From an uncultured virus (IMG/VR IMGVR_UViG_2880350357_000003) (lineage: Duplodnaviria; Heunggongvirae; Uroviricota; Caudoviricetes), in IMG/VR virus record IMGVR_UViG_2880350357_000003, positions 1-64,000 of that record: a stretch of DNA of 64,000 nucleotides. The stretch is one strand, 5' to 3'. A program made the translations under genes and the position numbers. The notes beneath the pieces were generated by a model that did not search any database, was not told the DNA's origin, and worked only from the letters and a program-made list of their open reading frames with translations. Below are positions 14,570 through 50,023 of the stretch, piece by piece; within the stretch, counting starts at the first letter, position 1, and each line of letters starts with the position of its first letter.

Positions 14570-15319
14570 TTAACCGGCGGTTTTTACCGCCTTTGGTGGA
14601 CGCCCGCGCTTTGCTGCCGGTCTGGCGGCAGGTTTGCGCGTGCGCGGTTTAGTCGTTTTACGGGGTGCGGCCTCTGGCTTTGGCTTCAATGCCCGTTCCA
14701 GTCGCTCAATCTCCTTGCGCACACCGGCATTGCGGTCGAGCTGCATCGCGCGCTGAAACTGCGCCAGCGCCTCTGCATTCATACCGGCATCACGCAGGGT
14801 CAGGCCTGTCACCTTATGCAGACGGGCGCGCACCATATCGGGGACGTCAGCGCCGTCGGTCAGGTCGATAGTGGTCTGCAGCCAGGAAAGGTCGACAGAA
14901 TCACCGGCATCGCGCAGGCGCTGAGCAGCAAGCGCCACTTCCTCAACCAGCATGTAAGGTGTTGTGCGGCGATGGTCAGAGGTGAGGCCGTATTTCAGCG
15001 CGTAGGGGGCAATTTCCAGCGCGCCAGCGATATCACCGGCATCGAGACGCCACAGCATGACGGTCATAACAATGTCATCCTGCGCACCACGACCATCAGC
15101 CAGCACACCGGCGACCCACGGCGCATAGAACGGCAGCAGTTCGCGCTTTTTCTCAGCTTTACGTTCGTTTGAACGGATGTTTTTTAACGTGCGGCGGTCA
15201 TCGGCCAGCTTAACCAGCATCTGCTCATAGGCGGTTGCATTGCGCAGCGGGGCTTGCTCCCGCTGCGCGGCTTGAGAGGCCGAGACCCGCATCATGTGAC
15301 GCTGTGCGGGGCTCGTCAT
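14570..15319 (-). CDS. M: Terminase small subunit gpM
   Basis: MTSPAQRH, QDDIVMTVMLWRLDAGD, GVRKEIERLER. Confidence 0.93.
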   Translation of the reverse strand: MTSPAQRHMMRVSASQAAQREQAPLRNATAYEQMLVKLADDRRTLKNIRSNERKAEKKRELLPFYAPWVAGVLADGRGAQDDIVMTVMLWRLDAGDIAGALEIAPYALKYGLTSDHRRTTPYMLVEEVALAAQRLRDAGDSVDLSWLQTTIDLTDGADVPDMVRARLHKVTGLTLRDAGMNAEALAQFQRAMQLDRNAGVRKEIERLERALKPKPEAAPRKTTKPRTRKPAARPAAKRGRPPKAVKTAG

Positions 15320-17486: not shown

Positions 17487-19259
17487 ATGACCATTTCCAC
17501 CGATACAACCTTATTGCATGACCCGCGACGACAGGCATCGCTGCTTTACTGGCAGGGCTTTTCCGTGCCACAGATTGCCGAAATGCTGCAGGTCAAGCGC
17601 CCGACCGTGCAGAGCTGGAAACAGCGCGACGGCTGGGACGGCATCGCGCCGATTTCCCGTGTCGAAAGCAGCCTTGAGGCCAGGCTGATTCAGCTCATCG
17701 CCAAGCCGCAAAAGTCAGGCGGCGACTTCAAAGAGATTGACCTGCTCGGGCGGCAGATTGAGCGACTGGCGCGCGTCAACCGCTACAGCCAGACCGGCAA
17801 CGAGGCCGACCTTAACCCCAACGTTGCCAACCGTAACAAGGGGGAGCGTAAGAGGCCGAAAAAGAACTTTTTCAGCGATGAGGCTGTCGCAAAGCTGGAA
17901 GAAATTTTCTTCGACCAGTCTTTCGAATACCAGTTGCAGTGGTACCGGGCAGGACTGGCGCACCGTATTCGCAACATTCTCAAATCCCGCCAGATTGGCG
18001 CGACATTCTACTTTGCGCGTGAGGCGCTGCTACGTGCGCTCAAGACCGGCCACAATCAGATATTTTTATCAGCCAGTAAAACGCAGGCTTACGTGTTCCG
18101 CGAATACATCATCCAGTTTGCGCGACTGGTTGACGTCGACCTGACTGGCGACCCGATTGTCATCGGCAACAACGGCGCAAAGCTGATTTTTCTCGGCACC
18201 AATTCCAACACCGCGCAGAGCCATAACGGCGACCTGTATGTCGATGAAATATTCTGGATCCCGAATTTTCAGAAGCTGCGCAAAGTCGCATCGGGCATGG
18301 CCTCGCAAAAGCATCTGCGCTCAACTTACTTTTCGACACCTTCCACGCTGGCGCACGGCGCTTACCCCTTCTGGTCTGGCGAGCTGTTCAACAAGGGGCG
18401 CGCCAGTGCCGCTGACCGCATCGAAATCGACATCAGTCACAGCGCGCTCGCCGGTGGGCTTCTTTGCGCTGACGGACAGTGGCGGCAGATTGTCACTATT
18501 GAGGACGCCCTTGCCGGTGGCTGCACCCTGTTCGACCTCGACCAGCTCAGACGCGAAAACAGTGATGAGGACTTTAATAACCTGTTTATGTGCGAGTTTG
18601 TCGACGATAAGGCATCGGTATTCCCGTTCGAGGAGCTGCAGCGCTGCATGGTCGACGTGATGGAAACATGGGAGGACTTCGCCCCGTTCGCCGACCACCC
18701 GTTCGGCTCGCGCCCGGTCTGGATTGGCTACGACCCGTCCCACACCGGCGACAGTGCCGGATGTGTCGTACTCGCGCCGCCGGTGGTTTCGGGTGGCAAG
18801 TTTCGCATGCTGGAGCGTCACCAGTGGAAAGGCATGGACTTTGCCGCGCAGGCAGAAGGCATCCGCAGGCTCACTGAGAAATACAACGTCGAATACATCG
18901 GCATTGACGCGACCGGCCTCGGTCTCGGCGTATTCCAGTTGGTGCGCTCATTCTACCCGGCGGCTCGCGGTATCCGTTACACGCCAGAAATGAAAACCGC
19001 AATGGTGCTCAAGGCGAAAGACACGATTCGCCGTGGCTGTCTGGAGTACGACGCCGGTGCAACTGATGTCACACAGTCGTTTATGTCCATCCGCAAAACC
19101 ATGACCAGCAGCGGGCGCAGCGCCACCTATGAGGCCAGCCGCACCGAGGAAGCCAGTCACGCTGATATCGCATGGGCCACCATGCACGCTCTGTTAAACG
19201 AACCGCTTTCTGCCGGTAGCGGCATGCAGCCTAAATCCATTCTGGAGATTAACCAATGA
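17487..19259 (+). CDS. P: Terminase large (ATPase/nuclease) subunit gpP
   Basis: N-terminal HTH, LKSRQIGAT Walker A, LYVDE Walker B, IGYDP and HADIAWA nuclease motifs. Confidence 0.96.
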   Translation: MTISTDTTLLHDPRRQASLLYWQGFSVPQIAEMLQVKRPTVQSWKQRDGWDGIAPISRVESSLEARLIQLIAKPQKSGGDFKEIDLLGRQIERLARVNRYSQTGNEADLNPNVANRNKGERKRPKKNFFSDEAVAKLEEIFFDQSFEYQLQWYRAGLAHRIRNILKSRQIGATFYFAREALLRALKTGHNQIFLSASKTQAYVFREYIIQFARLVDVDLTGDPIVIGNNGAKLIFLGTNSNTAQSHNGDLYVDEIFWIPNFQKLRKVASGMASQKHLRSTYFSTPSTLAHGAYPFWSGELFNKGRASAADRIEIDISHSALAGGLLCADGQWRQIVTIEDALAGGCTLFDLDQLRRENSDEDFNNLFMCEFVDDKASVFPFEELQRCMVDVMETWEDFAPFADHPFGSRPVWIGYDPSHTGDSAGCVVLAPPVVSGGKFRMLERHQWKGMDFAAQAEGIRRLTEKYNVEYIGIDATGLGLGVFQLVRSFYPAARGIRYTPEMKTAMVLKAKDTIRRGCLEYDAGATDVTQSFMSIRKTMTSSGRSATYEASRTEEASHADIAWATMHALLNEPLSAGSGMQPKSILEINQ

Positions 19260-20002
19260 AAAATAACGCTTTCTCACAAAGCCAGATTCAGGCAATGGCC
19301 GATATTCTGCACAATGACAGTTTTGACTATCAGGCAACATGGTTGCGGGTCGGAAAACTCAATATCGACCGTAGCATTACTAAATCGCGCCAGATTGGCG
19401 CAACGCTGCTATTTAGTCGTGAGGCACTGCTCGATGCGCTGACAACGGGCGATAATCAAATCTGGTTTGCTCATACAGTTGAGTATGCGCGCGTGGCGCT
19501 GATGTACATGAATAACCTTTCAACACGCGTCGGTGTCCGTCTGGCGAGCAACGGTTACAGCGTACAGCTTGACAGCGGTGCGACCATCAGCCTTGTCGGC
19601 GAGGAATCCCATTGCGCCGCGCTGGCGGGTAATGTCTACCTTGATGAGTTCGGATGGTTCAATAACCCGCTAAGAGCGGCAAAAGTCGCAGCGGCTATAG
19701 CCTGCCATAAACGCCACAGCCTGACGATGTTCACCTCTCCCTCTGATAATTATGACGCTTTCCGGGTGTGGAACGGCACGTTCCGCAGGCATCGACCGAC
19801 ACCGCTAATCAATACCGGCGACAGCGTATTCTGTACAGATGGCGTCTGGCGCCAGTCGGTCACACTGGATGCAGCATGCCAGCGCGGGTGCAATCTCTTT
19901 GCGCCCGAGGAAATTAAACACGAATACAGCGACGATGATTATCGCATGTTATTTGGTTGCGACTGGTCTTTCGCTGTTGCAGCGGGCGAGGTGGCAGCAT
20001 GA
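19256..20002 (+). CDS. Stand-alone terminase-ATPase-domain paralogue
   Basis: TKSRQIGAT, VYLDEFGW, CTDGVWRQ align with the gpP ATPase domain; no HTH or nuclease domain. Confidence 0.88.
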   Translation: MKNNAFSQSQIQAMADILHNDSFDYQATWLRVGKLNIDRSITKSRQIGATLLFSREALLDALTTGDNQIWFAHTVEYARVALMYMNNLSTRVGVRLASNGYSVQLDSGATISLVGEESHCAALAGNVYLDEFGWFNNPLRAAKVAAAIACHKRHSLTMFTSPSDNYDAFRVWNGTFRRHRPTPLINTGDSVFCTDGVWRQSVTLDAACQRGCNLFAPEEIKHEYSDDDYRMLFGCDWSFAVAAGEVAA

Positions 20003-21021
20003 GCAAGCGCAAGCCACGCAAAGCAGTCGCCATGACCGCCAGTGCACCGCAAAAAATGGAGGCGTTCACCTTCGGTGAGCCGGTGCCGGTGCTCGATAAG
20101 CGCGATATTCTGGATTACGTCGAGTGCATCAGTAACGGCAAATGGTACGAGCCGCCGGTCAGCTTCTCCGGGCTGGCAAAAAGCCTGCGCTCTGCAGTGC
20201 ATCACAGCTCACCGATTTACGTTAAACGCAACGTGCTCGCGAGCACCTACATTCCGCACCCTCTGCTGTCCCGTCAGGATTTCAGCCGCTTTACGCTCGA
20301 CTATCTGGTATTCGGTAACGCCTTTCTTGAGCAGCGCCACAGCGTCACCGGACAGTTAATCAAACTGCTGACTTCACCGGCAAAATACACCCGGCGCGGG
20401 GTCGATGACTCGGTTTTCTGGTTTGTGGAAAACTTCACTCAGCCGCATGAGTTCGCACCCGATACCGTGTTCCACCTGCTGGAGCCTGATATTAATCAGG
20501 AGATTTACGGCCTGCCTGAATATCTCAGCGCGCTTAATTCCGCATGGCTGAATGAATCCGCGACGCTGTTCCGCCGCAAGTATTACCAGAACGGCGCGCA
20601 CGCAGGTTACATCATGTATGTGACTGACCCGGCGCAAAGCGCGACTGACGTCGAATCGCTGCGCGATGCAATGCGTAACTCTAAAGGGCTCGGCAACTTT
20701 AAAAACCTGTTTTTCTACTCACCGAACGGGAAACCGGACGGCATAAAAATCGTGCCATTGAGCGAAGTCGCCACAAAGGATGACTTTTTTAACATCAAGA
20801 AAGCCAGCGCTGCCGACCTGATGGATGCGCACCGCGTACCGTTCCAGCTCATGGGCGGCAAGCCTGAGAATATTGGCTTAATGGGTGACGTTGAGAAGGT
20901 GGCAAAGGTCTTTGTGCGTAACGAGTTATCGCCGCTACAGGACAGGTTCAGGGAGGTAAACGACTGGCTCGGCATGGAGGTCATCAGGTTCAAAGAGTAC
21001 ACCCTCGACAACCCGGAATAA
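19999..21021 (+). CDS. Q: Portal protein gpQ
   Basis: EAFTFGEP, HHSSPIYVKRN, YGLPEY, FRRKYYQNGAHAG; start MSKRK. Confidence 0.96.
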   Translation: MSKRKPRKAVAMTASAPQKMEAFTFGEPVPVLDKRDILDYVECISNGKWYEPPVSFSGLAKSLRSAVHHSSPIYVKRNVLASTYIPHPLLSRQDFSRFTLDYLVFGNAFLEQRHSVTGQLIKLLTSPAKYTRRGVDDSVFWFVENFTQPHEFAPDTVFHLLEPDINQEIYGLPEYLSALNSAWLNESATLFRRKYYQNGAHAGYIMYVTDPAQSATDVESLRDAMRNSKGLGNFKNLFFYSPNGKPDGIKIVPLSEVATKDDFFNIKKASAADLMDAHRVPFQLMGGKPENIGLMGDVEKVAKVFVRNELSPLQDRFREVNDWLGMEVIRFKEYTLDNPE

Positions 21022-29762: not shown

Positions 29763-30812
29763 ATGACTGTTAGCAAGCAGAAAAACGGTAAATGGCTATG
29801 TGAGCTTTATCCAAACGGTCGGGAAGGGCGGCGTATACGTCGGCAATTCAATACCAAAGGTGAGGCCGAGGCATTCGAAGCATTTACGAAAAGTGAGAGT
29901 GAGGATAAGCCGTGGCTTGGCAAGAAAGAAGACCGGCGGCGCTTAAGTGAGATAATCCAGCTTTGGCATAATCTGCATGGACAGGCTTTAGTTGCAAGTA
30001 AGTCACGATTGGCTAAATTGCAGATTGTATGTAATGGTCTTGGTGACCCTATCGCATCCCGCCTTACTGCTAAAGATTGGGCTCACTATCGTGATAAACG
30101 GCTTCGTGGCGAAATAGATAATGGATATCACAAAGACCCTGCAAAATGGATCGCCAAACCGATAACCGTTAACCGTGAGCAGCAGTATTTAGAAGCTGTT
30201 TTCAATGAGCTAAAGCGGTTAGGGGAATGGAGTCTACCTAATCCGCTTGATGGCATTCGTGTCTTTAAAGAAGCTGAGAAGGAAATGTCATGGCTGACTT
30301 TGTCTCAACTCCCTGAGCTGTTTCGAGCCTGCGAGCAATACGGCAAAGAAGACCTCACCATGATTGTTAAGGTGTGCCTTGCAACCGGCGCTCGATGGGG
30401 GGAAGCGGAGAGATTGACCCGCCCGCAACTTTCTCCATATAAACTGACGTTCACCAAAACCAAAGGTAAGAAGAATCGCACAGTTCCTATCCCTAAATGG
30501 CTGTACGACGAGTTGTCCGAACGTCAAGGCAGAATGTTTAAACCCTGCTATCAGGAGTTTAAAAAGATGCTCAAACTAACGAATATTGAATTGACGGAAG
30601 GGCAGAAGACGCACGTTTTGCGTCATACTTTTGGTGCGCATTTTATGATGAACGGCGGGAATATACTGGTGCTGCAGAAAATTCTCGGGCATGCCAATAT
30701 TCGAGAAACAATGAAGTATGCACACTTTGCTCCTGACCACCTTGAACAAGCTGTCACCCTCAATCCGTTATCGCTGTATGTTGGCGACAATGTGGCGGCA
30801 GAGGTTGCATAA
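29763..30812 (+). CDS. int: Tyrosine integrase (186/HP1 type)
   Basis: TGARWGE, HVLRHTF, LGH, Y(AH) catalytic residues. Confidence 0.96.
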   Translation: MTVSKQKNGKWLCELYPNGREGRRIRRQFNTKGEAEAFEAFTKSESEDKPWLGKKEDRRRLSEIIQLWHNLHGQALVASKSRLAKLQIVCNGLGDPIASRLTAKDWAHYRDKRLRGEIDNGYHKDPAKWIAKPITVNREQQYLEAVFNELKRLGEWSLPNPLDGIRVFKEAEKEMSWLTLSQLPELFRACEQYGKEDLTMIVKVCLATGARWGEAERLTRPQLSPYKLTFTKTKGKKNRTVPIPKWLYDELSERQGRMFKPCYQEFKKMLKLTNIELTEGQKTHVLRHTFGAHFMMNGGNILVLQKILGHANIRETMKYAHFAPDHLEQAVTLNPLSLYVGDNVAAEVA

Positions 30813-31063: not shown

Positions 31064-32284
31064 TTAGTTTAGCGAGCGTTCCGCACGCCGGTGTTTAGCC
31101 TGATACATATTTCGATCGGCCAGTTCTTGTAGTTTTTCGGCAGTGGCATGTTCCCATGTCAGCGCAAAGCCAATACTCATGGTCATCGTTATCCGCTGGC
31201 CGTTATGCAGTTCAAAAGGTCGATTAAACGCCTGGGATAGCGCTGCGCAAATACGTTGTACTTCATATTCCGAATGTACATCGTAAAGCACCATCGCAAA
31301 TTCATCGCCGCCGAGTCGGTAAGTCTGATAACGGCTACCACCGAATTCCGCTAATCTTTTGGCAACCTCTATAAGTACGCGGTCGCCTGCCGCATGTCCC
31401 CAGGTATCATTAATATATTTAAAGTTATCGCCATCCAGAAATAACAATGCCGAACTGCTACGAGCGGAATTGTCCTTCATCAGCGCGTTAATACAGCTGC
31501 GAAATGCTGCGCGATTGGCAAGCCCCGTCAGCGGATCGTGCAGCGCGGTACGTAGTAACTGGGCATTTTTAGCCTGAAGCCGTAGCTGCCATTCTTCCAT
31601 CTCATCCAGAAGGCTATTGAAATCCTGCGCAAACAGGTGAAATTCCGCAATACGCTCATCAGGTACCCGGCGTGAAAAATTTCGGTTAGTGCGAACGTCG
31701 TGTACAACTTCAGTAATATTTTGCAGCGCATCCACAACGCCATTGTGTAAATAACGCGTGAGCAGCAGGGCAATGCCGGATGCCAGCAGAATACATCCTG
31801 TCAGCACTGCCAGCGATAGCCAGATAAAATGACCAATAAGGCTGTCGCGGGCGACAAGCCGTACTTCGCCGATGGCCCTGCCGTTGTGCCAGACGGGTTG
31901 CGATACCGGCAATGGAAAAAGCCAGTGGCTAATTAAGCCAATGAGCTTATCGTCTGCGGCTCGCGCATCATAGCGCCATGAGGCGATAATACGGCCATTT
32001 TTATCGCGGACCTCCGCCGCTGAAAATTGTCCCTGGCGTCCCAGTGTGGCGAGCGTTTCCGCTGCGGCCGTGTTATCGGAAAATACCAGTGCCGCTTCAA
32101 GGCTATGGGCCATTGTGGCGGCGGTCAAATCGAGATTCTTTTGCGCATACTGTTTGAGCGTAAGGACAGACGCAACGCAAATTAATAGCCAGATCAATGT
32201 CATCGTAAGCAGCACGCTGATTATACTAATCCGCCGTAGTGTGCGTTTAAATGTTGGTCTGGACAGAGAAAATTCCTTATTCAT
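31064..32284 (-). CDS. yfiN: Diguanylate cyclase DgcN/YfiN
   Basis: 2 TM + HAMP + [17 protein letters not shown]. Confidence 0.95.
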
Positions 32285-32795
32285 GCTTTTGATTCCGTGC
32301 AAGCATTAATACTTCTGGATTCACTCTCACGCCGCTATGCGCGAGGGAGTCCAGGTTGACGGAAAATTTGACTTCATCATTGTTAATGATCAGACAAAAT
32401 GCGCTGCCAATAATACATTCGGTATTTTGCTCGGCAATTAATAACAAGGCATTAACTGGATAATGACGCGTTAACTCCACCTGATAAGCTGGCGATTCAT
32501 TGCCAAAGTAAAAACCATCACAGTGGGCGCTCAGGGCTTCTTGTGTGGTACGGATGACAAGCGGTTGATAAGGGAAAGCCCAGTCAGCCTCTTCGCTAAG
32601 TACCCTGACAAAACGCGCAGATGAAAATATGCATAGCCTTGGCGGCCCGGATAACGCCGGCCAGTGTGTATAACTGACGATACCGGAGACGATAGCGCGT
32701 ACGGATTTCTCTTCTTCCGTGACGCGTTGAGCATACAGAGGCAAGCTTGCTAATAATAGCGATAACAGAAGGATAAATCGGTGAGAAAAACGCAT
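32277..32795 (-). CDS. yfiR: Periplasmic regulator YfiR
   Basis: Signal peptide, [26 protein letters not shown]. Confidence 0.93.
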
Positions 32796-33071
32796 TAACA
32801 AGTCCCCACCATCTTCAGTCGTAAAGCATTAAAATACATCCGTGATTGTTTGTAGCAAAATAACATTATTTTGCCATATCGTCATTATGTCTTATTGATA
32901 ATATGAATAATTTAAGTGGCGTCCCTGATATTAAATTCTTGTGATAATGGTATTAATCACCCTATATCAGAAAGTAAAAATATGTGTGCGGAGAAAAAAT
33001 AATCAAAAAATAGCGAGCATCGCTCATTTTACCGTTTTTCTGAGGCTGGGAATAAAATAATTCACTTGTTG

Positions 33072-33177
33072 TGTAAAGTTTTTGATACGAAACGAAGGGG
33101 GTTAATCGACGATTGCGTGTGGTGTAAAGTTTATTTTACGTAATATGGATTGAAATCTTTACTTTTTGTGGTATGGT
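33072..33177 (+). promoter_or_regulatory. aroF promoter with TyrR boxes
   Basis: TGTAAA-N6-GATACG (33072) and TGTAAA-N6-TTTACG (33123); TTGAAA -35 at 33150, TATGGT -10. Confidence 0.8.
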
Positions 33178-33234
33178 TTAAACATCCTCGTGGAGGATCA
33201 ACTATCGCAAACAAGAAAAGACAGGATCGCCATC

Positions 33235-34305
33235 ATGCAAAAAGACGCGCTGAATAACGTACGTATCACCGATGAACAGGTATTAATGACACCGGAGCAG
33301 CTTAAAGCGGCCTTTCCGTTGAGCCTGGCGCAGGAAGCGCAGATAGCGCAGTCCCGGGGAATCATTTCTGACATTATTGCCGGGCGCGATCCGCGTCTGT
33401 TGGTGGTATGCGGTCCTTGTTCTATTCACGATCCTGAAACCGCTCTGGAATATGCCCGTCGATTTAAAGCCCTTGCCGCAGAGGTCAGCGATAGCCTCTA
33501 TCTGGTAATGCGCGTCTATTTTGAAAAGCCGCGGACTACCGTCGGCTGGAAAGGGCTGATTAACGATCCTCACATGGATGGCTCATTTGATGTGGAAGCC
33601 GGGTTGAAAATAGCGCGTCAGCTACTGGTGGAACTGGTGAATATGGGGTTGCCATTGGCGACCGAAGCGTTGGATCCGAACAGCCCGCAATACCTGGGCG
33701 ATCTGTTTAGCTGGTCGGCGATAGGCGCGCGCACAACCGAATCGCAAACCCACCGCGAAATGGCGTCTGGTCTTTCTATGCCGGTCGGCTTTAAAAACGG
33801 CACGGATGGCAGCCTGGCGACAGCGATTAACGCCATGCGCGCCGCTGCGCAACCTCATCGTTTTGTTGGCATTAACCAGGCCGGTCAGGTTGCGTTATTG
33901 CAAACCCAGGGAAATCCGCATGGCCATGTAATTCTGCGTGGCGGCAAAGCGCCAAACTATAGCCCGGCAGATGTCGCTCAGTGTGAAAAAGAGATGGAAC
34001 AGGCGGGACTACGTCCTTCGCTGATGGTAGATTGCAGTCATGGTAACTCCAATAAAGATTATCGCCGCCAGCCAGCCGTTGCCGAATCTGTGGTTGCGCA
34101 GATTAAAGATGGCAATCGTTCAATCATTGGCTTAATGATTGAAAGTAATATTCATGAGGGTAATCAGTCTTCCGAACAGCCGCGCAGCGAAATGAAGTAT
34201 GGCGTTTCCGTCACCGATGCTTGTATTAGCTGGGAGATGACCGATGCCCTGTTACGTGAAATTCATAAAGATTTGAGCGGCCAGCTGGCGGTGCGCGTCG
34301 CATAA
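33235..34305 (+). CDS. aroF: Tyr-sensitive DAHP synthase
   Basis: MQKDALNNV start; GPCSIHD, KPRTTVGWKG, DCSHGNS. Confidence 0.98.
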   Translation: MQKDALNNVRITDEQVLMTPEQLKAAFPLSLAQEAQIAQSRGIISDIIAGRDPRLLVVCGPCSIHDPETALEYARRFKALAAEVSDSLYLVMRVYFEKPRTTVGWKGLINDPHMDGSFDVEAGLKIARQLLVELVNMGLPLATEALDPNSPQYLGDLFSWSAIGARTTESQTHREMASGLSMPVGFKNGTDGSLATAINAMRAAAQPHRFVGINQAGQVALLQTQGNPHGHVILRGGKAPNYSPADVAQCEKEMEQAGLRPSLMVDCSHGNSNKDYRRQPAVAESVVAQIKDGNRSIIGLMIESNIHEGNQSSEQPRSEMKYGVSVTDACISWEMTDALLREIHKDLSGQLAVRVA

Positions 34306-34314
34306 GAGGTTGTT

Positions 34315-35436
34315 ATGGTTGCTGAATTGACCGCATTACGCGATCAAATAGATGATGTCGATAAAGCGTTGTTGAATTTACTGGCTAAGCGCCTGGAACT
34401 GGTAGCCAAAGTCGGCGAGGTGAAAAGCCGTTTTGGCCTGCCTATTTACGTGCCGGAGCGTGAGGCCTCTATGCTGGCTTCACGACGGGCGGAAGCAGAA
34501 GCGATCGGTGTCCCGCCCGATCTCATTGAAGATGTCCTGCGCCGGGTAATGCGTGAATCTTACTCCAGCGAAAATGATAAGGGGTTCAAAACGCTTTGTC
34601 CTTCTCTGCGTCCGGTCGTCATTGTGGGTGGCGGCGGACAGATGGGGCGTCTGTTTGAAAAAATGCTCACGCTGTCGGGCTATCAGGTCCGTATTCTGGA
34701 ACAACAGGACTGGCCGCGCGCCGGGGACATTGTCGCCGATGCCGGAATGGTGATCGTCAGCGTGCCGATTCATGTTACTGAACAGGTCATAGCGCAACTG
34801 CCGCCCCTGCCGTCCGACTGTATTCTGGTCGATCTGGCATCGGTGAAAAGCGCTCCGTTGCAGGCAATGTTGGCGGCCCATGATGGCCCCGTGTTGGGCT
34901 TGCATCCGATGTTTGGTCCGGACAGCGGGAGCCTGGCGAAGCAGGTGGTGGTCTGGTGTGACGGGCGTCAACCGGAAGCGTATCAGTGGTTCCTTGAGCA
35001 AATCCAGGTGTGGGGCGCGCGGTTGCACCGAATTAGCGCTGTCGAGCACGATCAGAACATGGCTTTTATCCAGGCGTTGCGCCACTTTGCTACCTTCGCT
35101 TATGGGCTGCATCTGGCGGAAGAGAACGTCCAGCTTGAGCAGCTTCTGGCGCTATCATCGCCGATTTATCGACTGGAGCTGGCGATGGTCGGGCGTCTGT
35201 TCGCCCAGGACCCGCAACTGTATGCGGACATTATTATGTCGTCGGAGCGCAATCTGGCGCTTATCAAGCGTTACTATAAACGTTTTGGCGATGCGATCGG
35301 GTTACTGGAACAGGGCGATAAGCAGGCTTTTATCGACAGTTTTCGCAAAGTTGAACACTGGTTTGGCGATTATGCCAGACGCTTCCAGAATGAAAGCCGT
35401 GTGTTATTGCGTCAGGCGAATGACAGCCGACCATAA
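34315..35436 (+). CDS. tyrA: Chorismate mutase/prephenate dehydrogenase
   Basis: [27 protein letters not shown]. Confidence 0.98.
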
Positions 35437-35452
35437 TGATGACATCTATACT

Positions 35453-35477
35453 AAAAGCCAGCTTTGCTGGCTTTTTT
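35453..35477 (+). terminator. tyrA terminator
   Basis: aaaagccagc-ttt-gctggctttttt. Confidence 0.85.
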
Positions 35478-35493
35478 CGTTTAAGGAACCGTT

Positions 35494-36402
35494 ATGACTA
35501 CGCCGCACGTTTTATTTGATTATGTCGGACATCTACCAGAATGCCCCACATGGAGCGAGGATGAAAGCGCGCTGTATTGGACCGATATCCTGGAACAGGA
35601 GATCCATCGTTACCATCCGGCGAGCGGGACGCATAGCGTGCTGGCGTTTCCGGAAGAAGTGGGCTGTTTTGCCTTGCGTGAGCAGGGCGGATTTATTGTG
35701 GCCATGCGTCATGCTATCTGGCTGGCCGATAAAAATGGATTATTGCAGCGTAAGGTTTGCGACAATCCCTCTAATACGAAACTGGCGCGTTTCAACGATG
35801 GCGGCACTGATGGCGATGGACGTTTTTATGCCGGAACGTTCTGGGCGCCAGGTGACTATAATGGCGCGTTGCTGATGCGGATCGATCATGACCTGACGGC
35901 AAAAGTGATCCAGTGCGATATCCTGGGACACAACGGCCTGGCGTTCAGCCCGGATAACCAGTGGATGTATACCTCCGATACGCCGAATGGCGTGATATAC
36001 CGCACGTTACTTGATAAGCATGGCGAACCGGGCAAGCGTGAACTTTTTCGCCATTTTGGCGAAGGAGAAGGACTTCCCGACGGCGCGGCGATGGATAGTG
36101 AAGGGTGCTACTGGAGCGCGATGTTTGACGGCTGGCGCGTGGCGCGTTTCTCACCGCAAGGAGAGCAGCTGGAAGAGTACCGGTTGCCGGTACGTTGTCC
36201 GACGATGGTTTGCTTTGGCGGCGCAGATATGAAAACGCTGTTTATTACAACTACCAGAGAAAATATGTCTGCTCAGGAAGTGGCGGATTATCCGCTCTCC
36301 GGCGCCATCTTCACCCTGCAGGTAGCCGTCGCAGGGATGAAGAAAAGCCGTTTTATTGAACGTCAGGCAGGTTCTACCGGCACGACGTTTTCGCTGGGAT
36401 AG
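35494..36402 (+). CDS. SMP-30/gluconolactonase family protein
   Basis: [37 protein letters not shown]. Confidence 0.92.
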
Positions 36403-37523
36403 CAGCCAAGCACTTTCATTGAGCGCGTGATCTCGCCCAGCTCTTTTAGCGCGCTTTGCATTACCTGCGACTCCAGGTTCGCCTGAATATCGAGATAAAA
36501 CATCTCTTCCCACGGATTGCCGTGAATGGGGCGCGACTCCAGTTTCGTCATGATGAGATTGTGGTTACGCAGCACCAGCAGCGCTTCGACCAGCGCGCCA
36601 GCCTGCTGCCCGGTGGCTATTAACAGAGTGGTTTTTGCCGGAACCTGATCGGAAACGTTGATGGCTTTGCGCGCCAGTACCAGAAAGCGGGTGATATTCT
36701 GCGTCTGGTTTGCGGCGATGCGTTCCAGCACCTGTAAACCGTGCAACATGCCGCCTGCCTCGCTGCCGAGCGCCGCGACGCGCGGAGAGTTCGCCTGCGC
36801 GACTTTTTCCATCGCGGCCGACGTACTCTCGGTATAGTTGATTTTCCAGTGCGGATAGCGGCTCAAAAATTTACTGCACTGCTGGAACGGCTGCGGATGG
36901 CTGTACACCGTTTCGATGGTATTCAGATCCGTAGCGCCGGAAACCAGCACGCAGTGATCGATAGTGACGGTCATCTCACCGACAATCGACAGACTGGTGT
37001 GTTGCAATAAGTCGTACACATCGTTGATAGCGCCGGAGCTGGTGTTCTCTATCGGAACCACGGCGTAATCGGCCTGGCCGGTTTCGACCTGATGAAAAAT
37101 ATCGGTGAATTTTGCGCAACCGCTCTCAATAAATTGCTCAAAATGGCGTGCGGCATACTGGCGCGCCGCGAGATGAGAATAGGAGCCTTTCGGCCCAAGA
37201 AACGCAATACGTGCCGAATGAGGGTGAGTATTATTCAGATGTTGTTGCAGCAGCGCCTGCTGAGTAAGCACGGAGTCTTCAATGATAAGCTGGAACAGAC
37301 GGGTAATGTAGTGTGCGTCGAGATGGTGGGCTTTACCGAAATGGATGAGCCTGTCCAGCAGCGCGCGTTCACGATCGATATCCCGAACCGGACGATGCGA
37401 CAGTAGTTTTGCTTGTCCCACTTCAATCGCCAGCGCGCGTCGTTTTGCCAGTAAGGCCAGTAACTCTTCGTCTAAGGCGCTGATTTTATCTCGCAGCGCC
37501 AGTAATGGGTTTTCCGATGTCAT
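36363..37523 (-). CDS. pheA: Chorismate mutase/prephenate dehydratase
   Basis: [29 protein letters not shown]. Confidence 0.98.
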
Positions 37524-37834: not shown

Positions 37835-38827
37835 TTATTTGGTGGACATTATATGGACACTCCCTTTCATCGGGTTAAAGCGAATAGCATCGGTGAGATA
37901 ATCCGGTGCGAAATGGGCATACGTCATTGTTTGCTCAATGGTGGTATGTCCCAAGATCCGTTGCAGGGTGATGATATTGCCGCCGTTAATCATGAAATGA
38001 GTGGCGAACGTATGACGGAGTACGTGCAGTGCCTGTCCTTTTGGTAAGTCGGGTTTTACTCTTCGAAGGATGTCGCGCACACGCGTATAGTTCGTCTCGA
38101 ATAATCGGCCTGATTTGCAGGTCAGTATGTAGCTGGCCACTTCCTCGGAAATTGGGACTGTCCGAGCTGGTCCGGTCTTCGTTTTAACAAATGTCACTTT
38201 GTTGCTGATCACATGTTCTGCTTTCAGGTTCCTGGCTTCACCCCAGCGGGCACCGGTGTTCAGGCAGAGTACAACAATGCGCCTGTCATCCCCTGTGAGT
38301 TCATCCAGCAATGCCGTGACCTCATCTGAGGAAAGAAAGGACATCTCTGTATTCTCAAGCTTCAGTTTGCGCACGCTTTGGAAGGGGTTGTCCGTGTGAA
38401 ACTCGTCAACTTCTGCCAACAGAGTAAACATGCTGGACATGGCACAGAAATCACGGTTGACTGTTCCAGCAGATACCCCGCTTTGCAATCTGTCTGCCCG
38501 GTACCTCATCAGGCGGTTGCGTGTCAGCATATGCACCCTTGGGTAATCCAGTTCCCGGTCAATTTTCTCCAGCCGCTTACGGTATGAGTCGCCATAGTTG
38601 TGATTTTTCCCGTGATAGCTCCACCATAATGTGATCATGGTAGAAAGCAGCCTTTGGTCTGAAGGTTTATCCTGCCACTCTTTATTGTGGCAATTAGCAA
38701 GAACATATCGTTCAAAGGCTAGCGCATCTGCCTTCTTGTCAAATTTACGCCGGACTCTGCGTCCTGAGATTCCGCGCGGTCTGATATCCACTTCATAACG
38801 ACCACCATCAAGCTTTTTAATCGCCAT
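37835..38827 (-). CDS. int: Tyrosine integrase (P2 Int type)
   Basis: MAIKKLDGGRYEVDIRPRG, TGARWGE, HVLRHTFA, LGH, YAH; TGGACA arm-like repeats at 37842-37859. Confidence 0.96.
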   Translation of the reverse strand: MAIKKLDGGRYEVDIRPRGISGRRVRRKFDKKADALAFERYVLANCHNKEWQDKPSDQRLLSTMITLWWSYHGKNHNYGDSYRKRLEKIDRELDYPRVHMLTRNRLMRYRADRLQSGVSAGTVNRDFCAMSSMFTLLAEVDEFHTDNPFQSVRKLKLENTEMSFLSSDEVTALLDELTGDDRRIVVLCLNTGARWGEARNLKAEHVISNKVTFVKTKTGPARTVPISEEVASYILTCKSGRLFETNYTRVRDILRRVKPDLPKGQALHVLRHTFATHFMINGGNIITLQRILGHTTIEQTMTYAHFAPDYLTDAIRFNPMKGSVHIMSTK

Positions 38828-43851: not shown

Positions 43852-44871
43852 TTAATCACCTTCCAGCTCACTGTCTTTCAGGAAATTAAGATACAGGTGG
43901 GGCGGTACATCACTTTCCTGCGCCACTGCGGCGCTGAACATACGCTGAATGGGTAAAATCTCCGCTTTACGGTATGTTTTAGCCGCTTTCTCAATATCGC
44001 CCATTATAGCTCCGTTGGTGGGGATAATCCCTGCCAGACCTGCCGGAAAACGATGCGCGGTCAGCACGTCCTGGGCGCTGATGCTTTTGATGTTCTGAAA
44101 CTCATCTTTGGCGCTGATATCGCCAATCGGGATAAATTTAATGCCATCCGGATCGCCTTTGGGGATGTTCACAAACATGGTGCTGAAGTTCCCGATCCCC
44201 TTCGACTGCTCCAGCTTCTGAATGATTTCTTCTTCCACTTCGTCGGTCATATTCGGGTCGTTGCAATAAATCATGCCGCCCGTGTGACCACCGTTATGGT
44301 AGTAACGCCGGCGAAAAATCGTGGCTTCACCGTTGAGCATGGCGGAGTGGATGCCGCTGATGTAATCCGGAAGACCATAAATGGCCTGTTGCGGGTCGTA
44401 CTGCCTGAGAAAAATAATATCTTCAGGCGGATAAATTACCGGTTCACCCTGCTGTAGTACAACAAATTCCCCGGTCTTACGCTGGCGGGTATAGAGTGCC
44501 GGCAGCGGGTAAAGTGCGATTACATCCCCCCAGCCGTTACGTACCTTGAGAATGGCCACATCACCGAACGTCAGCCAGTCAAACACGGCCGCGCCCAGTT
44601 GCTCATGCGTCAGGCCACCGCCATCATAATTTGCTGTCACCATATTGCGGCGGGCATACAGCACGCCACCGTGCTGCGCGTTCAGGTTTACCAGTTGCGC
44701 CAGCGCCAGCCGGTCAATCGGGAGCGTCCAGTGTTCCGCCTCATTGTCATACCAGACGTCTGTATAGTTCGTGCCGGTTGTCAGAATGGGTTCTGGCTTA
44801 CCCAGCGTGATAAGGCTCATATGGCGCTGTCTGGTAACGGTGCGGCGTTCCCTGTATTTCCGTTTTTTCAT
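43852..44871 (-). CDS. Portal protein
   Basis: YDPQQAIYGLPDY, FRRRYYHNGGH, AHRFPAGLAG. Confidence 0.95.
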   Translation of the reverse strand: MKKRKYRERRTVTRQRHMSLITLGKPEPILTTGTNYTDVWYDNEAEHWTLPIDRLALAQLVNLNAQHGGVLYARRNMVTANYDGGGLTHEQLGAAVFDWLTFGDVAILKVRNGWGDVIALYPLPALYTRQRKTGEFVVLQQGEPVIYPPEDIIFLRQYDPQQAIYGLPDYISGIHSAMLNGEATIFRRRYYHNGGHTGGMIYCNDPNMTDEVEEEIIQKLEQSKGIGNFSTMFVNIPKGDPDGIKFIPIGDISAKDEFQNIKSISAQDVLTAHRFPAGLAGIIPTNGAIMGDIEKAAKTYRKAEILPIQRMFSAAVAQESDVPPHLYLNFLKDSELEGD

Positions 44872-46652
44872 GCTGCTTTCCCTAAGTTGCCCCAGCGTGA
44901 TTTTCGCTGGTTTTCAAAGTTTAATGGTTCGTTGTCAATGGCATGGGCGATAGCCCAGAAGCTGTCAGCGTGGCCGGTTTCAGTTGTACGGTCGGCAACA
45001 AACGTCATGGCGTTACCGCTGGCCGTGGATGTTCTGCGGATGGTCATAAAGCTGGCGGCGATTTCCGTCTTCTCCTTATCCCATTCCACGCGGTTGTCTT
45101 CGATAACGTCAATCATCTTCATCACCAGGCGGTTTTTCGTTTCCACGCCGTAGCGGATAGCCACCGCCTGACGCATGGCAAAATGCTGCACATCCTCAAA
45201 GACACCACTCCCCAGACCGGTAATATCAATGCCGATGTAGGTCATGTTGTACTGACCAGACAGCTTCTTAATTTGTGCCGCCTGCCATTTCCAGTTCATT
45301 CCCTGCCAGTGGAATACGCGCAGCACGCGAAATTTTTCGCCAGCCACGATCGGCGGCGCGATAATCACGAAGGTGGATGTGTCCCCGCTGCGTGCAGGGT
45401 CATAGCCTGCCCACACTTCACGATTGCCGAATGGTCGTGGCAGGTTTTCGTCATGATCCTCCCAGATATCCGGATCAACACAGCAACGTTCGACGTGGGA
45501 GAACGAAAATACGCTGTCCTTGCTGTCCACGAACACGCACATGTACAGCATGTTGAAGGTGTCGCGGTTGTAGCGGTTGCGCAGCTTATCGATGCTGGCC
45601 AGGTTAAACCCGCCTGCGATCGCGTCTTCCAGCGTGATGATGTAGCGCCACTGGCCATCAGGACATAACCGCCCGCCGTCACGCAGCTCCTTCTCTGTTG
45701 GGAACGCCACGCGTGCGCGTTTTTTGTCGCCGCGCTTCCACTCTTCGCCTGTCCAGAACGGGTACGCCTGGTGTGTTTTGCTGCTGGGTGTGGAAAAGTA
45801 AGTGGTGCGCCATTTGTCGTGTGTGGCCATTGCGCTGGCCACTTCGTTTAATTTTGCAAAGTTGGGTACCCAGAAATATTCATCACAGTACAGATGGCCA
45901 CTGTATGACTGGGCGGTGTTCTTGTTGGTTGACAGGAAGCGCAGCTCCGCGCCGTTGGACAAACGGATGGTGTTGCCGGTCAGCTCCACGCCGAAATACT
46001 GCTCCGCAATGTTGACGATATAGCTGCGGAATACTTCAGCCTGGGCTTTTGAGGCGGACAGGAAGATTTGTGGATCACCTGTCATAACCGCATTCTCAAA
46101 CGCTTCTATTGAGAAATACCAGGTTGCGCCAATCTGGCGGCTTTTCAGGATGTTCCTGATTTGCTGATGAAGATTGTCGCGAAGGTGTTTCTGGTAGCCG
46201 AAAAGGTGCTCCAGCGCGAAACGGTCAAAATCCTCCTGGGTTAGATGGCTGATATCGTTCTTTTTGTATTTGCCGCGTTTCCGGGGCTTTTCGTCGCCAC
46301 AGGACTGGCGGGACGCCGGCGCATCACTTTCACTGTGTTTAATTTCTGCCAGCTTTTCCTGATGCTTATTATGCTGTGCACGGAGTTTCACCAGGTGAGA
46401 CACGAGGCTGTCCAGCTCCCGCAGCTCCAGTTCCGATTTCCCTTCACGTAATGTCAGTGACTGAATACGGCGGTTTAATGCGTCTTCTGTTGATTCATGA
46501 CTGAGTAATTCCGCCCAGCAATATTTCTCCGCCCAGTAATAGACGATACGTCTGTTAGGCAGATTAAGTTCACCGGCAATTTCCTGCGGAGTATATCGTT
46601 TTAAATAGAGTGCCCGTGCAACGCCTTTTAATTCTTCACTGTATTTCGCCAT
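44868..46652 (-). CDS. Terminase large subunit
   Basis: LKSRQIGAT, LYCDE, GYDPAR, HADSFWA. Confidence 0.96.
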   Translation of the reverse strand: MAKYSEELKGVARALYLKRYTPQEIAGELNLPNRRIVYYWAEKYCWAELLSHESTEDALNRRIQSLTLREGKSELELRELDSLVSHLVKLRAQHNKHQEKLAEIKHSESDAPASRQSCGDEKPRKRGKYKKNDISHLTQEDFDRFALEHLFGYQKHLRDNLHQQIRNILKSRQIGATWYFSIEAFENAVMTGDPQIFLSASKAQAEVFRSYIVNIAEQYFGVELTGNTIRLSNGAELRFLSTNKNTAQSYSGHLYCDEYFWVPNFAKLNEVASAMATHDKWRTTYFSTPSSKTHQAYPFWTGEEWKRGDKKRARVAFPTEKELRDGGRLCPDGQWRYIITLEDAIAGGFNLASIDKLRNRYNRDTFNMLYMCVFVDSKDSVFSFSHVERCCVDPDIWEDHDENLPRPFGNREVWAGYDPARSGDTSTFVIIAPPIVAGEKFRVLRVFHWQGMNWKWQAAQIKKLSGQYNMTYIGIDITGLGSGVFEDVQHFAMRQAVAIRYGVETKNRLVMKMIDVIEDNRVEWDKEKTEIAASFMTIRRTSTASGNAMTFVADRTTETGHADSFWAIAHAIDNEPLNFENQRKSRWGNLGKAA

Positions 46653-48773: not shown

Positions 48774-49472
48774 ATGCAGTTGTCACCGGCACAGCGACAC
48801 AGCGCGCGTATTGCAGCAGAACGGCTGCTGCGTCAGCAACAATCTCTCGACAGTGAAACCAGTCTGCACGTCCAGATTGCGGCACTGGAAAAGGATGTGG
48901 CAGCGGCCGCAGCGATTAGCAACCGTGCGGAGCGCATGGAGTTCAAGCGTGATGTGCTGTTGCCCCGCTGGATGCCGACCGCACAAACCTGGCTGGAAAG
49001 TGACAGCATGCATCAGAATCCCGTTTTTGCCTGGTGTGTCATCTGGCTGTTTGATACCGGCCAGTTCGATCAGGCGCTGGACTGGGCGGATGTGGCCATC
49101 GAACGGGGGCAGGAAACCCCGGCCGCGTTCGGCAGTGCGTTCCCGGTGTTTGTGGCCGATACGGTACTGGCCTGGGCGGAGACGGAAGCCGCACAGGGGC
49201 AGGATGTGGAGCCGTATTTCAGCCGCACGCTGGGAAACGTTATGCAGCACTGGAATGTGTATGAGGTCATCAAGGCCAAATATGTGAAATTTGCCGGTCT
49301 GCACCTGCTACGCGATGAGAACGGAGAGCCACGCGCAGCGGCAACGGAAGACAGGGATGTATTGCTCCGGGCGAAGGATTTGCTGGAGCAGGCGAAGGGA
49401 TTCGACCCTAAATGTGGTGTCGGCACGATGTTGCAGCGCATTGCTGCACGTCTGCGGGCGCTGGATAAGTAA
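48774..49472 (+). CDS. Terminase small subunit (gpM-like)
   Basis: LSPAQRH, IWLFDTG, GVGT...I..R; position after capsid. Confidence 0.88.
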   Translation: MQLSPAQRHSARIAAERLLRQQQSLDSETSLHVQIAALEKDVAAAAAISNRAERMEFKRDVLLPRWMPTAQTWLESDSMHQNPVFAWCVIWLFDTGQFDQALDWADVAIERGQETPAAFGSAFPVFVADTVLAWAETEAAQGQDVEPYFSRTLGNVMQHWNVYEVIKAKYVKFAGLHLLRDENGEPRAAATEDRDVLLRAKDLLEQAKGFDPKCGVGTMLQRIAARLRALDK

Positions 49473-49570
49473 TCACAGGCTACCGACCCGAAAGCGGGCG
49501 CGGTGGAGGGGAGCGCATCAGCGTATCGCCCGTGGAAACCGGCCAGCCCGCTTTTTTCCGGAGGAACAGG

Positions 49571-50023
49571 ATGTTCAGCGGAACTGCAATTGATTTTGAT
49601 GATGCCATTCTGACGAATGATGGCTTCTGGCCAGACCTGAGCGTGAAGGATTTTCAGTCCCAGCGTGCTATTCCTGCCGATATCGACGCAGCCACCATCC
49701 GTCAGGCGCTGCTGACCGCAGCCGGTGAAATCAATGATGATCTGGTCAGGGTAGTGGCGGATTGTCGCCTCAGTGGCCATGCAAGCGCGGCGGACGTTCC
49801 GGGCGTTGAGATTGACGGTGAAAATCTGTTGTGCGCCCGTTACCGCAAGGCTGTTTTTGCCCGCGCCAAAGCTGACCTGATGGGCGAATTTGCGTCTGTT
49901 GGGCGCCGTGAAAGCCATCCCGGGCAGGAAAGCGATGAAACCCGCTCCAGTCTGATAGCGGAATCCACGCTGGCGGTACGGCGTATCAAAGGGCTGAAAC
50001 GCATCACGGTGGCCATGATATGA
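49571..50023 (+). CDS. Head completion protein (gpL-like)
   Basis: NDGFWPDL, Y.KAVFARAKA. Confidence 0.88.
   Translation: MFSGTAIDFDDAILTNDGFWPDLSVKDFQSQRAIPADIDAATIRQALLTAAGEINDDLVRVVADCRLSGHASAADVPGVEIDGENLLCARYRKAVFARAKADLMGEFASVGRRESHPGQESDETRSSLIAESTLAVRRIKGLKRITVAMI

Follow-up and report, generated by a model that had tools for sequence, protein, structure and literature searches.

Why should a P2-like prophage carry, between the genes for its large terminase and its portal, a further reading frame that resembles the ATPase domain of that same terminase? The question is raised by a 64,000-nucleotide stretch of DNA from an uncultured virus (IMG/VR IMGVR_UViG_2880350357_000003, positions 1 to 64,000; hereafter the window), which comes from a 64.6-kb provirus record containing two P2-family prophages. 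An original prediction, made from the letters of the window, had singled out a 248-amino-acid open reading frame (ORF) at 19256..20002 on the plus strand and had proposed that it might be a decoy or a modulator of packaging. We find that this ORF is almost certainly orthologous to coliphage 186 gene W, which corresponds to gp2 of the Salmonella phage PSP3, and that it is a gene maintained by selection. We refer to it below as W, and to the flanking terminase and portal genes as P and Q.

Results

When W was compared by tblastn with 50,697 phage records, it was 97.2% identical to PSP3 gp2 (AAN08364.1) over residues 1-248 and 91.6% identical to 186 W (AAC34147.1; U32222, 1215-1961) over residues 1-239. 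Thirteen records matched at 80% identity or more. Matches of 87-98% were found in the phages SW9, SI22, EtG, Midge and BIS20, and matches of 44-45% in two Yersinia phages. The gene itself is already known, having entered GenBank with the genomes of 186 and PSP3. The 186 record labels it 'W protein; similar to Orf12' and places it between Orf12 (the P homologue) and Orf2 (the Q homologue), the PSP3 record labels gp2 'similar to 186 W; similar to orf3', and the Escherichia coli copies bear the NCBI pipeline name 'terminase large subunit domain-containing protein'. The order of the three genes is the same in a Yersinia phage. Both 186 W and PSP3 gp2 are proteins of 248 amino acids with the same termini as the window protein, encoded in the same slot between P and Q with overlapping stop and start codons; we saw no material difference between them and the window copy, which lies in a PSP3-like provirus record. 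In our literature searches, no paper was found to discuss 186 W or the presence in P2-like phages of a second gene of the terminase type.

What kind of protein does W encode? BLASTP against the adjacent terminase gave 88 identities in 248 positions (35%, E 1e-41), with W residues 2-237 collinear with terminase residues 125-371, from KNNAFS/KKNFFS through LFGCDW/LFMCEF. The motifs KSRQIGAT, Y(L/V)DE and C.DG.WRQ are common to the two proteins, in agreement with the original prediction that W is collinear with gpP and keeps Walker A, Walker B and C.DG.WRQ. The same prediction held that W lacks the N-terminal helix-turn-helix (HTH) and the nuclease, and this too was upheld by Pfam, which detected Terminase_6N (PF03237) alone, at residues 41-237 and with 72.3 bits against a curated cut-off of 22. 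The Terminase_6C nuclease domain had no Pfam match in W, which ends 11 residues past LFGCDW, at the close of the ATPase domain; nor had the Terminase_5/HTH N-domain, W starting at the equivalent of P residue 125. The ATPase motifs consist of K43, R45 and G48 in Walker A (codons for K43-S-R-Q-I-G-A-T50 at 19382..19405, plus strand), D130-E131 in Walker B (Asp130 and the catalytic Glu131, GAT GAG, at 19643..19648, plus strand) and T-S-P-S at 160-163 in the C-motif. In 22 W-family sequences, K43, R45, Q46, I47, G48, A49, E131, S163 and R199/Q200 are invariant.

An AlphaFold2 model of W, built on a 60-sequence alignment, reached a predicted local distance difference test score (pLDDT) of 94.0 and a predicted template-modelling score (pTM) of 0.91. 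Its best Foldseek match in the PDB is the ATPase domain of T4 gp17 (2o0h, E 4.3e-9, template-modelling score 0.66), and further matches are the terminase ATPase domains of D6E and P74-26, as well as that of PhiV-1 in its Avs3-bound form (8dgc_E, E 4.8e-6). As modelled, W is predicted to fold as a complete terminase-type ATPase domain of the additional strand, conserved E (ASCE) class, in which the nucleotide-binding and catalytic residues are kept. W would not be a second terminase: of the domains of a functional large terminase subunit, the C-terminal RNaseH-like nuclease (Terminase_6C) and the gpP-type N-terminal Terminase_5/HTH are both absent. A close point of comparison is the ATPase domain of P2 gpP or 186 Orf12, which has the same fold, is collinear with W over the whole domain at 35-38% identity, and shares Walker A K-S-R-Q-I-G-A-T, the D-E of Walker B, the C-motif and DG.WRQ. 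In contrast to gpP and Orf12, W has no N-domain and no nuclease, belongs to a separate clade, and leaves several surface positions that are invariant in P unconstrained.

Within the window, W is joined to both neighbours. At 19256-19259, an ATGA links the stop codon of the terminase gene to the start codon of W, and at 19999-20002 a second ATGA links the W stop to the portal ATG, so that the 248-amino-acid frame and its two overlaps are as the original prediction had described them. Upstream lies the large terminase gene (17487..19259, plus strand, 590 amino acids), a homologue of P2 gpP and 186 Orf12 in which Pfam recognizes an N-terminal Terminase_5/HTH domain, the Terminase_6N ATPase and the Terminase_6C nuclease; its product is 96.6% identical in amino acids to 186 Orf12 and 99.3% identical to PSP3 gp3. 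Downstream lies the portal gene (19999..21021, plus strand, 340 amino acids), a homologue of P2 gpQ and 186 Orf2. In addition to the ATGA overlaps, W and the portal gene each have a Shine-Dalgarno-like site of their own on the plus strand. That of W, read from the sequence, is GGAG at 19244..19247, 8 nucleotides 5′ of the start codon and within the last terminase codons. That of the portal gene is GAGG at 19988..19991, 7 nucleotides before the ATG, and falls on the codons for G-E-V at the C-terminus of W; in the alignments, most W-family proteins retain G-E-V at this end. W is thus a late gene with an intact frame, and its translation is coupled to that of the terminase gene on its 5′ side and of the portal gene on its 3′ side. 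Contigs of 2,277 and 1,980 nucleotides, from two RNA-labelled public runs of two different studies, bridge the P/W and W/Q junctions (window 18278-20695). They are a weak hint, compatible with a single late P-W-Q transcript; DNA carry-over is possible, and contigs give no transcript level.

We estimated the ratio of non-synonymous to synonymous substitution rates (dN/dS) by the Nei-Gojobori method for six close W sequences, namely those of the window, 186, PSP3, E. coli CX21, Citrobacter and Erwinia, with pairs that are not independent of one another. Taken as a ratio of sums, dN/dS was 0.150 for W; P gave 0.042 and its ATPase segment 0.062, each of these three values coming from 15 pairs, and Q gave 0.057 from 21 pairs. 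By this measure W is under purifying selection, about 2.5-3.5 times weaker than that on its neighbours P and Q. All eight E. coli copies of W are annotated as intact coding sequences. Close copies (90-97%) occur in Salmonella phages, coliphage 186, E. coli, Citrobacter and Erwinia. Among 5.8 billion protein clusters, 43 relatives were found at E <= 1e-5, in which full length means 245-254 amino acids, down to 42% identity; identities are 75-91% in Edwardsiella, Enterobacter and further clusters, about 50% in Hafnia and Pectobacterium, and 42-45% in Yersinia. The original prediction had argued for selection rather than a decaying duplicate, and the dN/dS of 0.15, the constant length and the conserved catalytic residues support it in this. 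A HMMER search over 1.84 billion representatives returned 281 relatives at E <= 0.001, dozens of which are ATPase-only proteins of 220-270 amino acids.

Is the catalytic core maintained as a unit? In total, 25 positions, including those of the Q-motif, Walker A, the catalytic Glu and the C-motif, are conserved both in 18 W-clade sequences and in 52 non-redundant full-length terminases. A subset of the short forms carries a replacement of Thr by Asp at the end of Walker A (..GAD). In the 60-sequence alignment, every such short form (17/17) is without the Walker B Asp, having S, G, A or P in its place, and this Asp is lost in only one of the 43 remaining short forms. In a second alignment, GAD and the loss of the Walker B Asp go together in 12/12 short forms, and T/S with the D-E is kept in 58/58 full-length terminases. 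The GAD proteins (P0031, P0033, P0035, P0048, P0050, P0060, P0062, P0065, P0070, P0077, P0079, P0083, P0115, P0117, P0120, P0169 and P0181) cluster on the tree, and few evolutionary events therefore stand behind the count of 17/17. The swap looks like a compensated change in which the carboxylate of the Mg site would have been moved from Walker B to Walker A. Since this acid has apparently been moved and not lost, nucleotide binding would seem to be needed. We know of no description of such a relocation of the Mg carboxylate in terminases. Separately, a group of ATPase-only proteins of about 255 amino acids (P0123, P0146 and P0167) has a degenerate Walker A (e.g., ..HAPVIGLS) and keeps the D-E. 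This group and the terminase type found in the window's second prophage are sisters on the tree, and the members of the group may be inactive pseudo-ATPases.

Where did W come from? In an IQ-TREE phylogeny of 18 W-type proteins and 10 terminase ATPase domains, the two groups are split by a 100/100 branch of length 0.85, and every W is placed among the other Ws and none beside its own phage's P. Judged by this tree, W is an old paralogue that forms one clade, and not a recent copy of the neighbouring P. We rejected a recent duplication of the adjacent P, since each P that we compared with W is 35-38% identical to it, with the 100/100 branch between them. In a wider tree, the other short ATPase-only forms are scattered among the full-length terminases, and well-supported branches force at least two origins. 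Some of these non-W short forms (P0054/55/64, P0074, P0144/158/160/184, P0123/146/167 and P0058/89) may be truncated gene calls. Scans of viral contigs with P0048 and P0054 found no relative, and a scan with P0089 gave ordinary P-type matches only (80 loci, each with one ATPase-domain ORF and no second). A metagenome scan for the P0055 group likewise yielded 80 loci, each with one full-length terminase and none with a second ATPase ORF.

The genomic slot of W is constant. The order P-W-Q was found in 13/13 of the W-bearing loci among the 14 that we numbered L001-L014 (the remaining one, L004, is E. coli SA53-3, which is without W). With a W-like gene, the prophages L180 and L181 from a 201-genome sample of one bacterial family have this order as well. 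Altogether, the W-type gene lies between P and Q in 15/15 loci with readable context. The divergent W-types, those of the Yersinia phages vB_YenM_201.16/56.17 and of prophages of Pectobacterium, Hafnia, Serratia and Limnobaculum, belong to the same clade and length class and occupy the same slot where the context was read. They differ from the window protein in being 31-52% identical to it, and in one subclade the acidic Mg-site residue stands at the end of Walker A (GAD) instead of in Walker B (S/G/A/P-E). Across the 201-genome sample, 44 genomes gave any match, and three of these held between them four short frames adjoining a full-length terminase. A 240-amino-acid open frame in genome G125 was considered as a W and rejected, being a fragment of a frameshifted terminase. 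A second ATPase ORF was found in none of 151 other P2-like loci (L015-L165), many of which are from Betaproteobacteria or viral contigs. The distribution of homologues, which the original prediction had named as a check, is narrow: the W clade was found only in P2-like phages and prophages of Enterobacterales, to which all named sources of its proteins belong. Two loci show damage. In an Erwinia tracheiphila prophage (L006, 1734-3498), the terminase is recovered in three tblastn pieces, reflecting frameshifts, and W and the portal are intact; in Candidatus Symbiopectobacterium (L013), both the terminase and W are damaged.

Even within E. coli, W is rare. Its DNA was found over at least 80% of its length in 8 of 5,426 complete genomes; a P-W-Q query matched in 1,669 of these genomes, with 68 records at 90-95% identity. 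One comparison is that of the window with E. coli SA53-3, in which P is 96.9% identical to that of the window and is followed directly, with a TAATG overlap, by a Q that is 92.5% identical. The difference between the two is a clean indel comprising W and the first few portal codons. In the W-bearing E. coli CX21 (L005), P is 97.1% identical to that of the window. On the comparison of SA53-3 with CX21, P is without W-specific adaptation. W is thus optional, in that few E. coli genomes carry it and one relative with a near-identical P and Q lacks it. Downstream (3′) of the portal, the W-less SA53-3 (L004, 4754-5653) has a SIR2-family gene and CX21 (L005, 5557-6094) has small hypothetical ORFs, a difference that fits the variable hotspot known to lie close to the cos end of P2.

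Among more distant relatives, W diverges further than the genes that flank it. Identities to the window proteins are 74% for P, 52% for W and 74% for Q in Pectobacterium; 72%, 45% and 68%, respectively, in a Yersinia phage; and 81%, 32% and 80% in L180. The trees of the two genes also disagree: the P tree groups the window, 186 and L180 against L008, L003 and L181, whereas the W tree groups the window, 186 and L008 against L003, L180 and L181. Because the two trees are incongruent, W has passed from phage to phage as a cassette, independently of P and always into one slot.

The remainder of the window provides the setting. The PSP3/186-like prophage that carries W extends over approximately 1-30809, with an integrase gene (29763-30809, plus strand) at its end. 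Its packaging module also includes, in a divergent operon, the gene for the small terminase subunit, a homologue of P2 gpM and 186 R (14570..15319, minus strand; phrog_74, E 8.5e-95). Approximately 7 kb of host-like genes follow (31067-37523), among them a DAHP-synthase homologue (33166-34302). A second and more distant P2-family prophage, whose terminase is 43% identical, occupies 37838-64000, with its integrase gene (37838-38827, minus strand) at the start. In this prophage, P (44871-46652, minus strand) is directly followed by Q (43855-44871, minus strand) with no gene between them, exactly as the original prediction had it. A 282-amino-acid ORF of the second prophage (49073-49918, minus strand), lying between the capsid and tail-terminator genes, had no PHROG match; it may be a shadow ORF, a small-terminase gene being expected there on the other strand.

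Discussion

What, then, might W do? We tentatively propose, while rating it somewhat short of an even chance, that W is a dispensable accessory ATPase that works with the gpP/gpM terminase and the portal during DNA packaging. W would bind and probably hydrolyse ATP, and would either join or adjoin the motor ring or modulate the terminase. In several other phages, it is the C-terminal nuclease domain that bears the contact with the portal. Because W has neither of the two docking domains, the N-terminal one that recognizes DNA or the small terminase being absent as well, its contact with the packaging machine would be limited to ATPase-ATPase contacts or to DNA.

Several observations weigh against this proposal. 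First, the non-synonymous rate of W is about 2.7 times that of the ATPase segment of P, and fast evolution combined with patchy distribution is also the signature of a conflict gene. Second, W positions 73, 77, 81, 85 and 166 vary, and their equivalents are 90-100% conserved in full-length terminases. The first four are spaced on one helix and the fifth lies just after the C-motif; the loop before Walker B also differs by eye, being ..TNSNTAQS.. in P and ..GE.SHCA.. in W. W would accordingly seem to do only part of the work of the P ATPase domain, with the core kept and some surfaces lost. Third, approximately unbiased (AU) tests, for groups that were named after the trees had been seen, reject each gene on the grouping of the other (p = 0.001 and 2.9e-5). 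Such incongruence, together with the pairing in L180 of an 81% identical P with a 32% identical W, is not to be expected of a ring partner that fits P closely, and the lack of co-evolution between W and P, with the conflict-like pattern, counts against a tight structural partnership. Finally, the 186 record gives this ORF the genetic name W, which, if the amber mutants map here, would imply that the gene is essential rather than optional.

Could W instead serve in conflict, and not in packaging as such? It might be a catalytically live mimic of the terminase ATPase domain, driven by conflict and taken into or dropped from the slot between P and Q by P2-like phages of Enterobacterales, that shields or biases the motor against whatever targets this domain, be it a sensor or inhibitor of the host, a satellite or a rival phage. 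We regard this as unlikely, though far from negligible, and give the same modest weight to a conflict role in all its versions taken together. In its most specific form, which we consider less probable again, W is a swappable cassette that mimics the terminase ATPase and either poisons co-resident P2-like motors or limits hijacking by P4-like satellites, two roles that the original prediction had also named. Much of the pattern described above would fit such a module. W is present patchily (8/5,426 E. coli genomes, 0/151 of the loci L015-L165 and 0/80 metagenome loci), it diverges far beyond its flanks (in L180, P 81%, Q 80% and the W-like protein 32%), its tree is incongruent with that of P, its dN/dS is above those of P and Q, and the window itself holds two P2-family prophages. 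However, the slot contains this one family or nothing, unlike the known P2 defence hotspots with their varied cargo. A poison that is co-translated with its own terminase must also spare its own motor, yet W and its own P show no co-evolution. Phage 186, moreover, can act as a helper of P4, which we count against a module of this kind. If the conflict reading were nevertheless true, the relocation of the Mg-site Asp would be an escape change, altering the surface read by a sensor while ATP binding is kept.

We also considered that W might be a head gene, required for head morphogenesis or packaging in the phages that carry it. The letter genes of 186 are defined by conditional-lethal mutants, and GenBank U32222 enters the 'W protein' under gene W, in a late operon that ends at the terminator tW. 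The same record, however, also places gene W on the portal coding sequence, so that it may be the portal to which the genetic locus belongs. Given the ATGA coupling, a polar effect on the overlapping portal gene would probably follow from any amber mutation in W. W is missing from SA53-3, whose P is 96.9% and whose Q is 92.5% identical, and the W-bearing CX21 has a P of 97.1% identity. An essential role is improbable in our judgement, to about the same degree as the poison or satellite-limiting module.

The original prediction had suggested, among other possibilities, a decoy that soaks up the sensors of terminases (Avs1-3 and Upx) and thereby spares the real terminase. W does keep the ATPase active-site features that Avs sensors read, its model resembles the PhiV-1 domain seen bound to Avs3, and its distribution is patchy and its evolution fast. 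Binding, however, activates such sensors, and an additional folded ATPase domain would add a trigger. According to Evans et al. (2026, PMC13601566), EcAvs2 is strongly activated by five terminases' ATPase domains on their own, this domain by itself is enough to activate Upx, and vs.8 of T4, a stand-alone terminase-like ATPase, is toxic with EcAvs2; these data concern EcAvs2 and Upx, and Avs3 lies outside them. Because isolated terminase ATPase domains activate EcAvs2 and Upx in that report, W would, by analogy, more likely be a trigger than a sponge for these sensors, and the decoy is disfavoured. Our literature search found no description of a terminase-like decoy, and we consider a role of this kind very unlikely.

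T4 vs.8 (NP_049732.1) deserves a comparison of its own. As described in PMC13601566, it stands alone, is similar to the ATPase domain of the terminase of its own phage and has Walker motifs, and is therefore the same kind of object as W. We detected no homology between W and vs.8 (hhalign with the 60-sequence W alignment, probability 0.25, E 0.24). The two also differ in setting, vs.8 lying among early and middle genes beside denV and W between the terminase and the portal. T4 vs.8 is presumably an independent invention and the nearest analogue of W in kind.

As for a decaying or neutral partial duplicate of the terminase, W is indeed less constrained than P and absent from most P2-like phages examined, but the dN/dS of 0.15, the frame, which is intact and keeps its length in different genera as far as 42% identity, the invariant catalytic residues and the 100/100 branch between the W clade and all P make this scarcely credible, and as far as sequence analysis reaches it is refuted.

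What does the presence of W mean for these phages? Given the detection of the isolated domain by Avs2 and Upx, as reported in PMC13601566, a free extra ATPase domain is a visible cost to the phage that makes it. The gain that W brings in return would bear either on the assembly of the packaging motor or on the conflict between phage and host. An old clade in a fixed slot, often lost, exchanged between phages and including one subclade with a compensated swap in its active site, W offers handles for work on phage 186.

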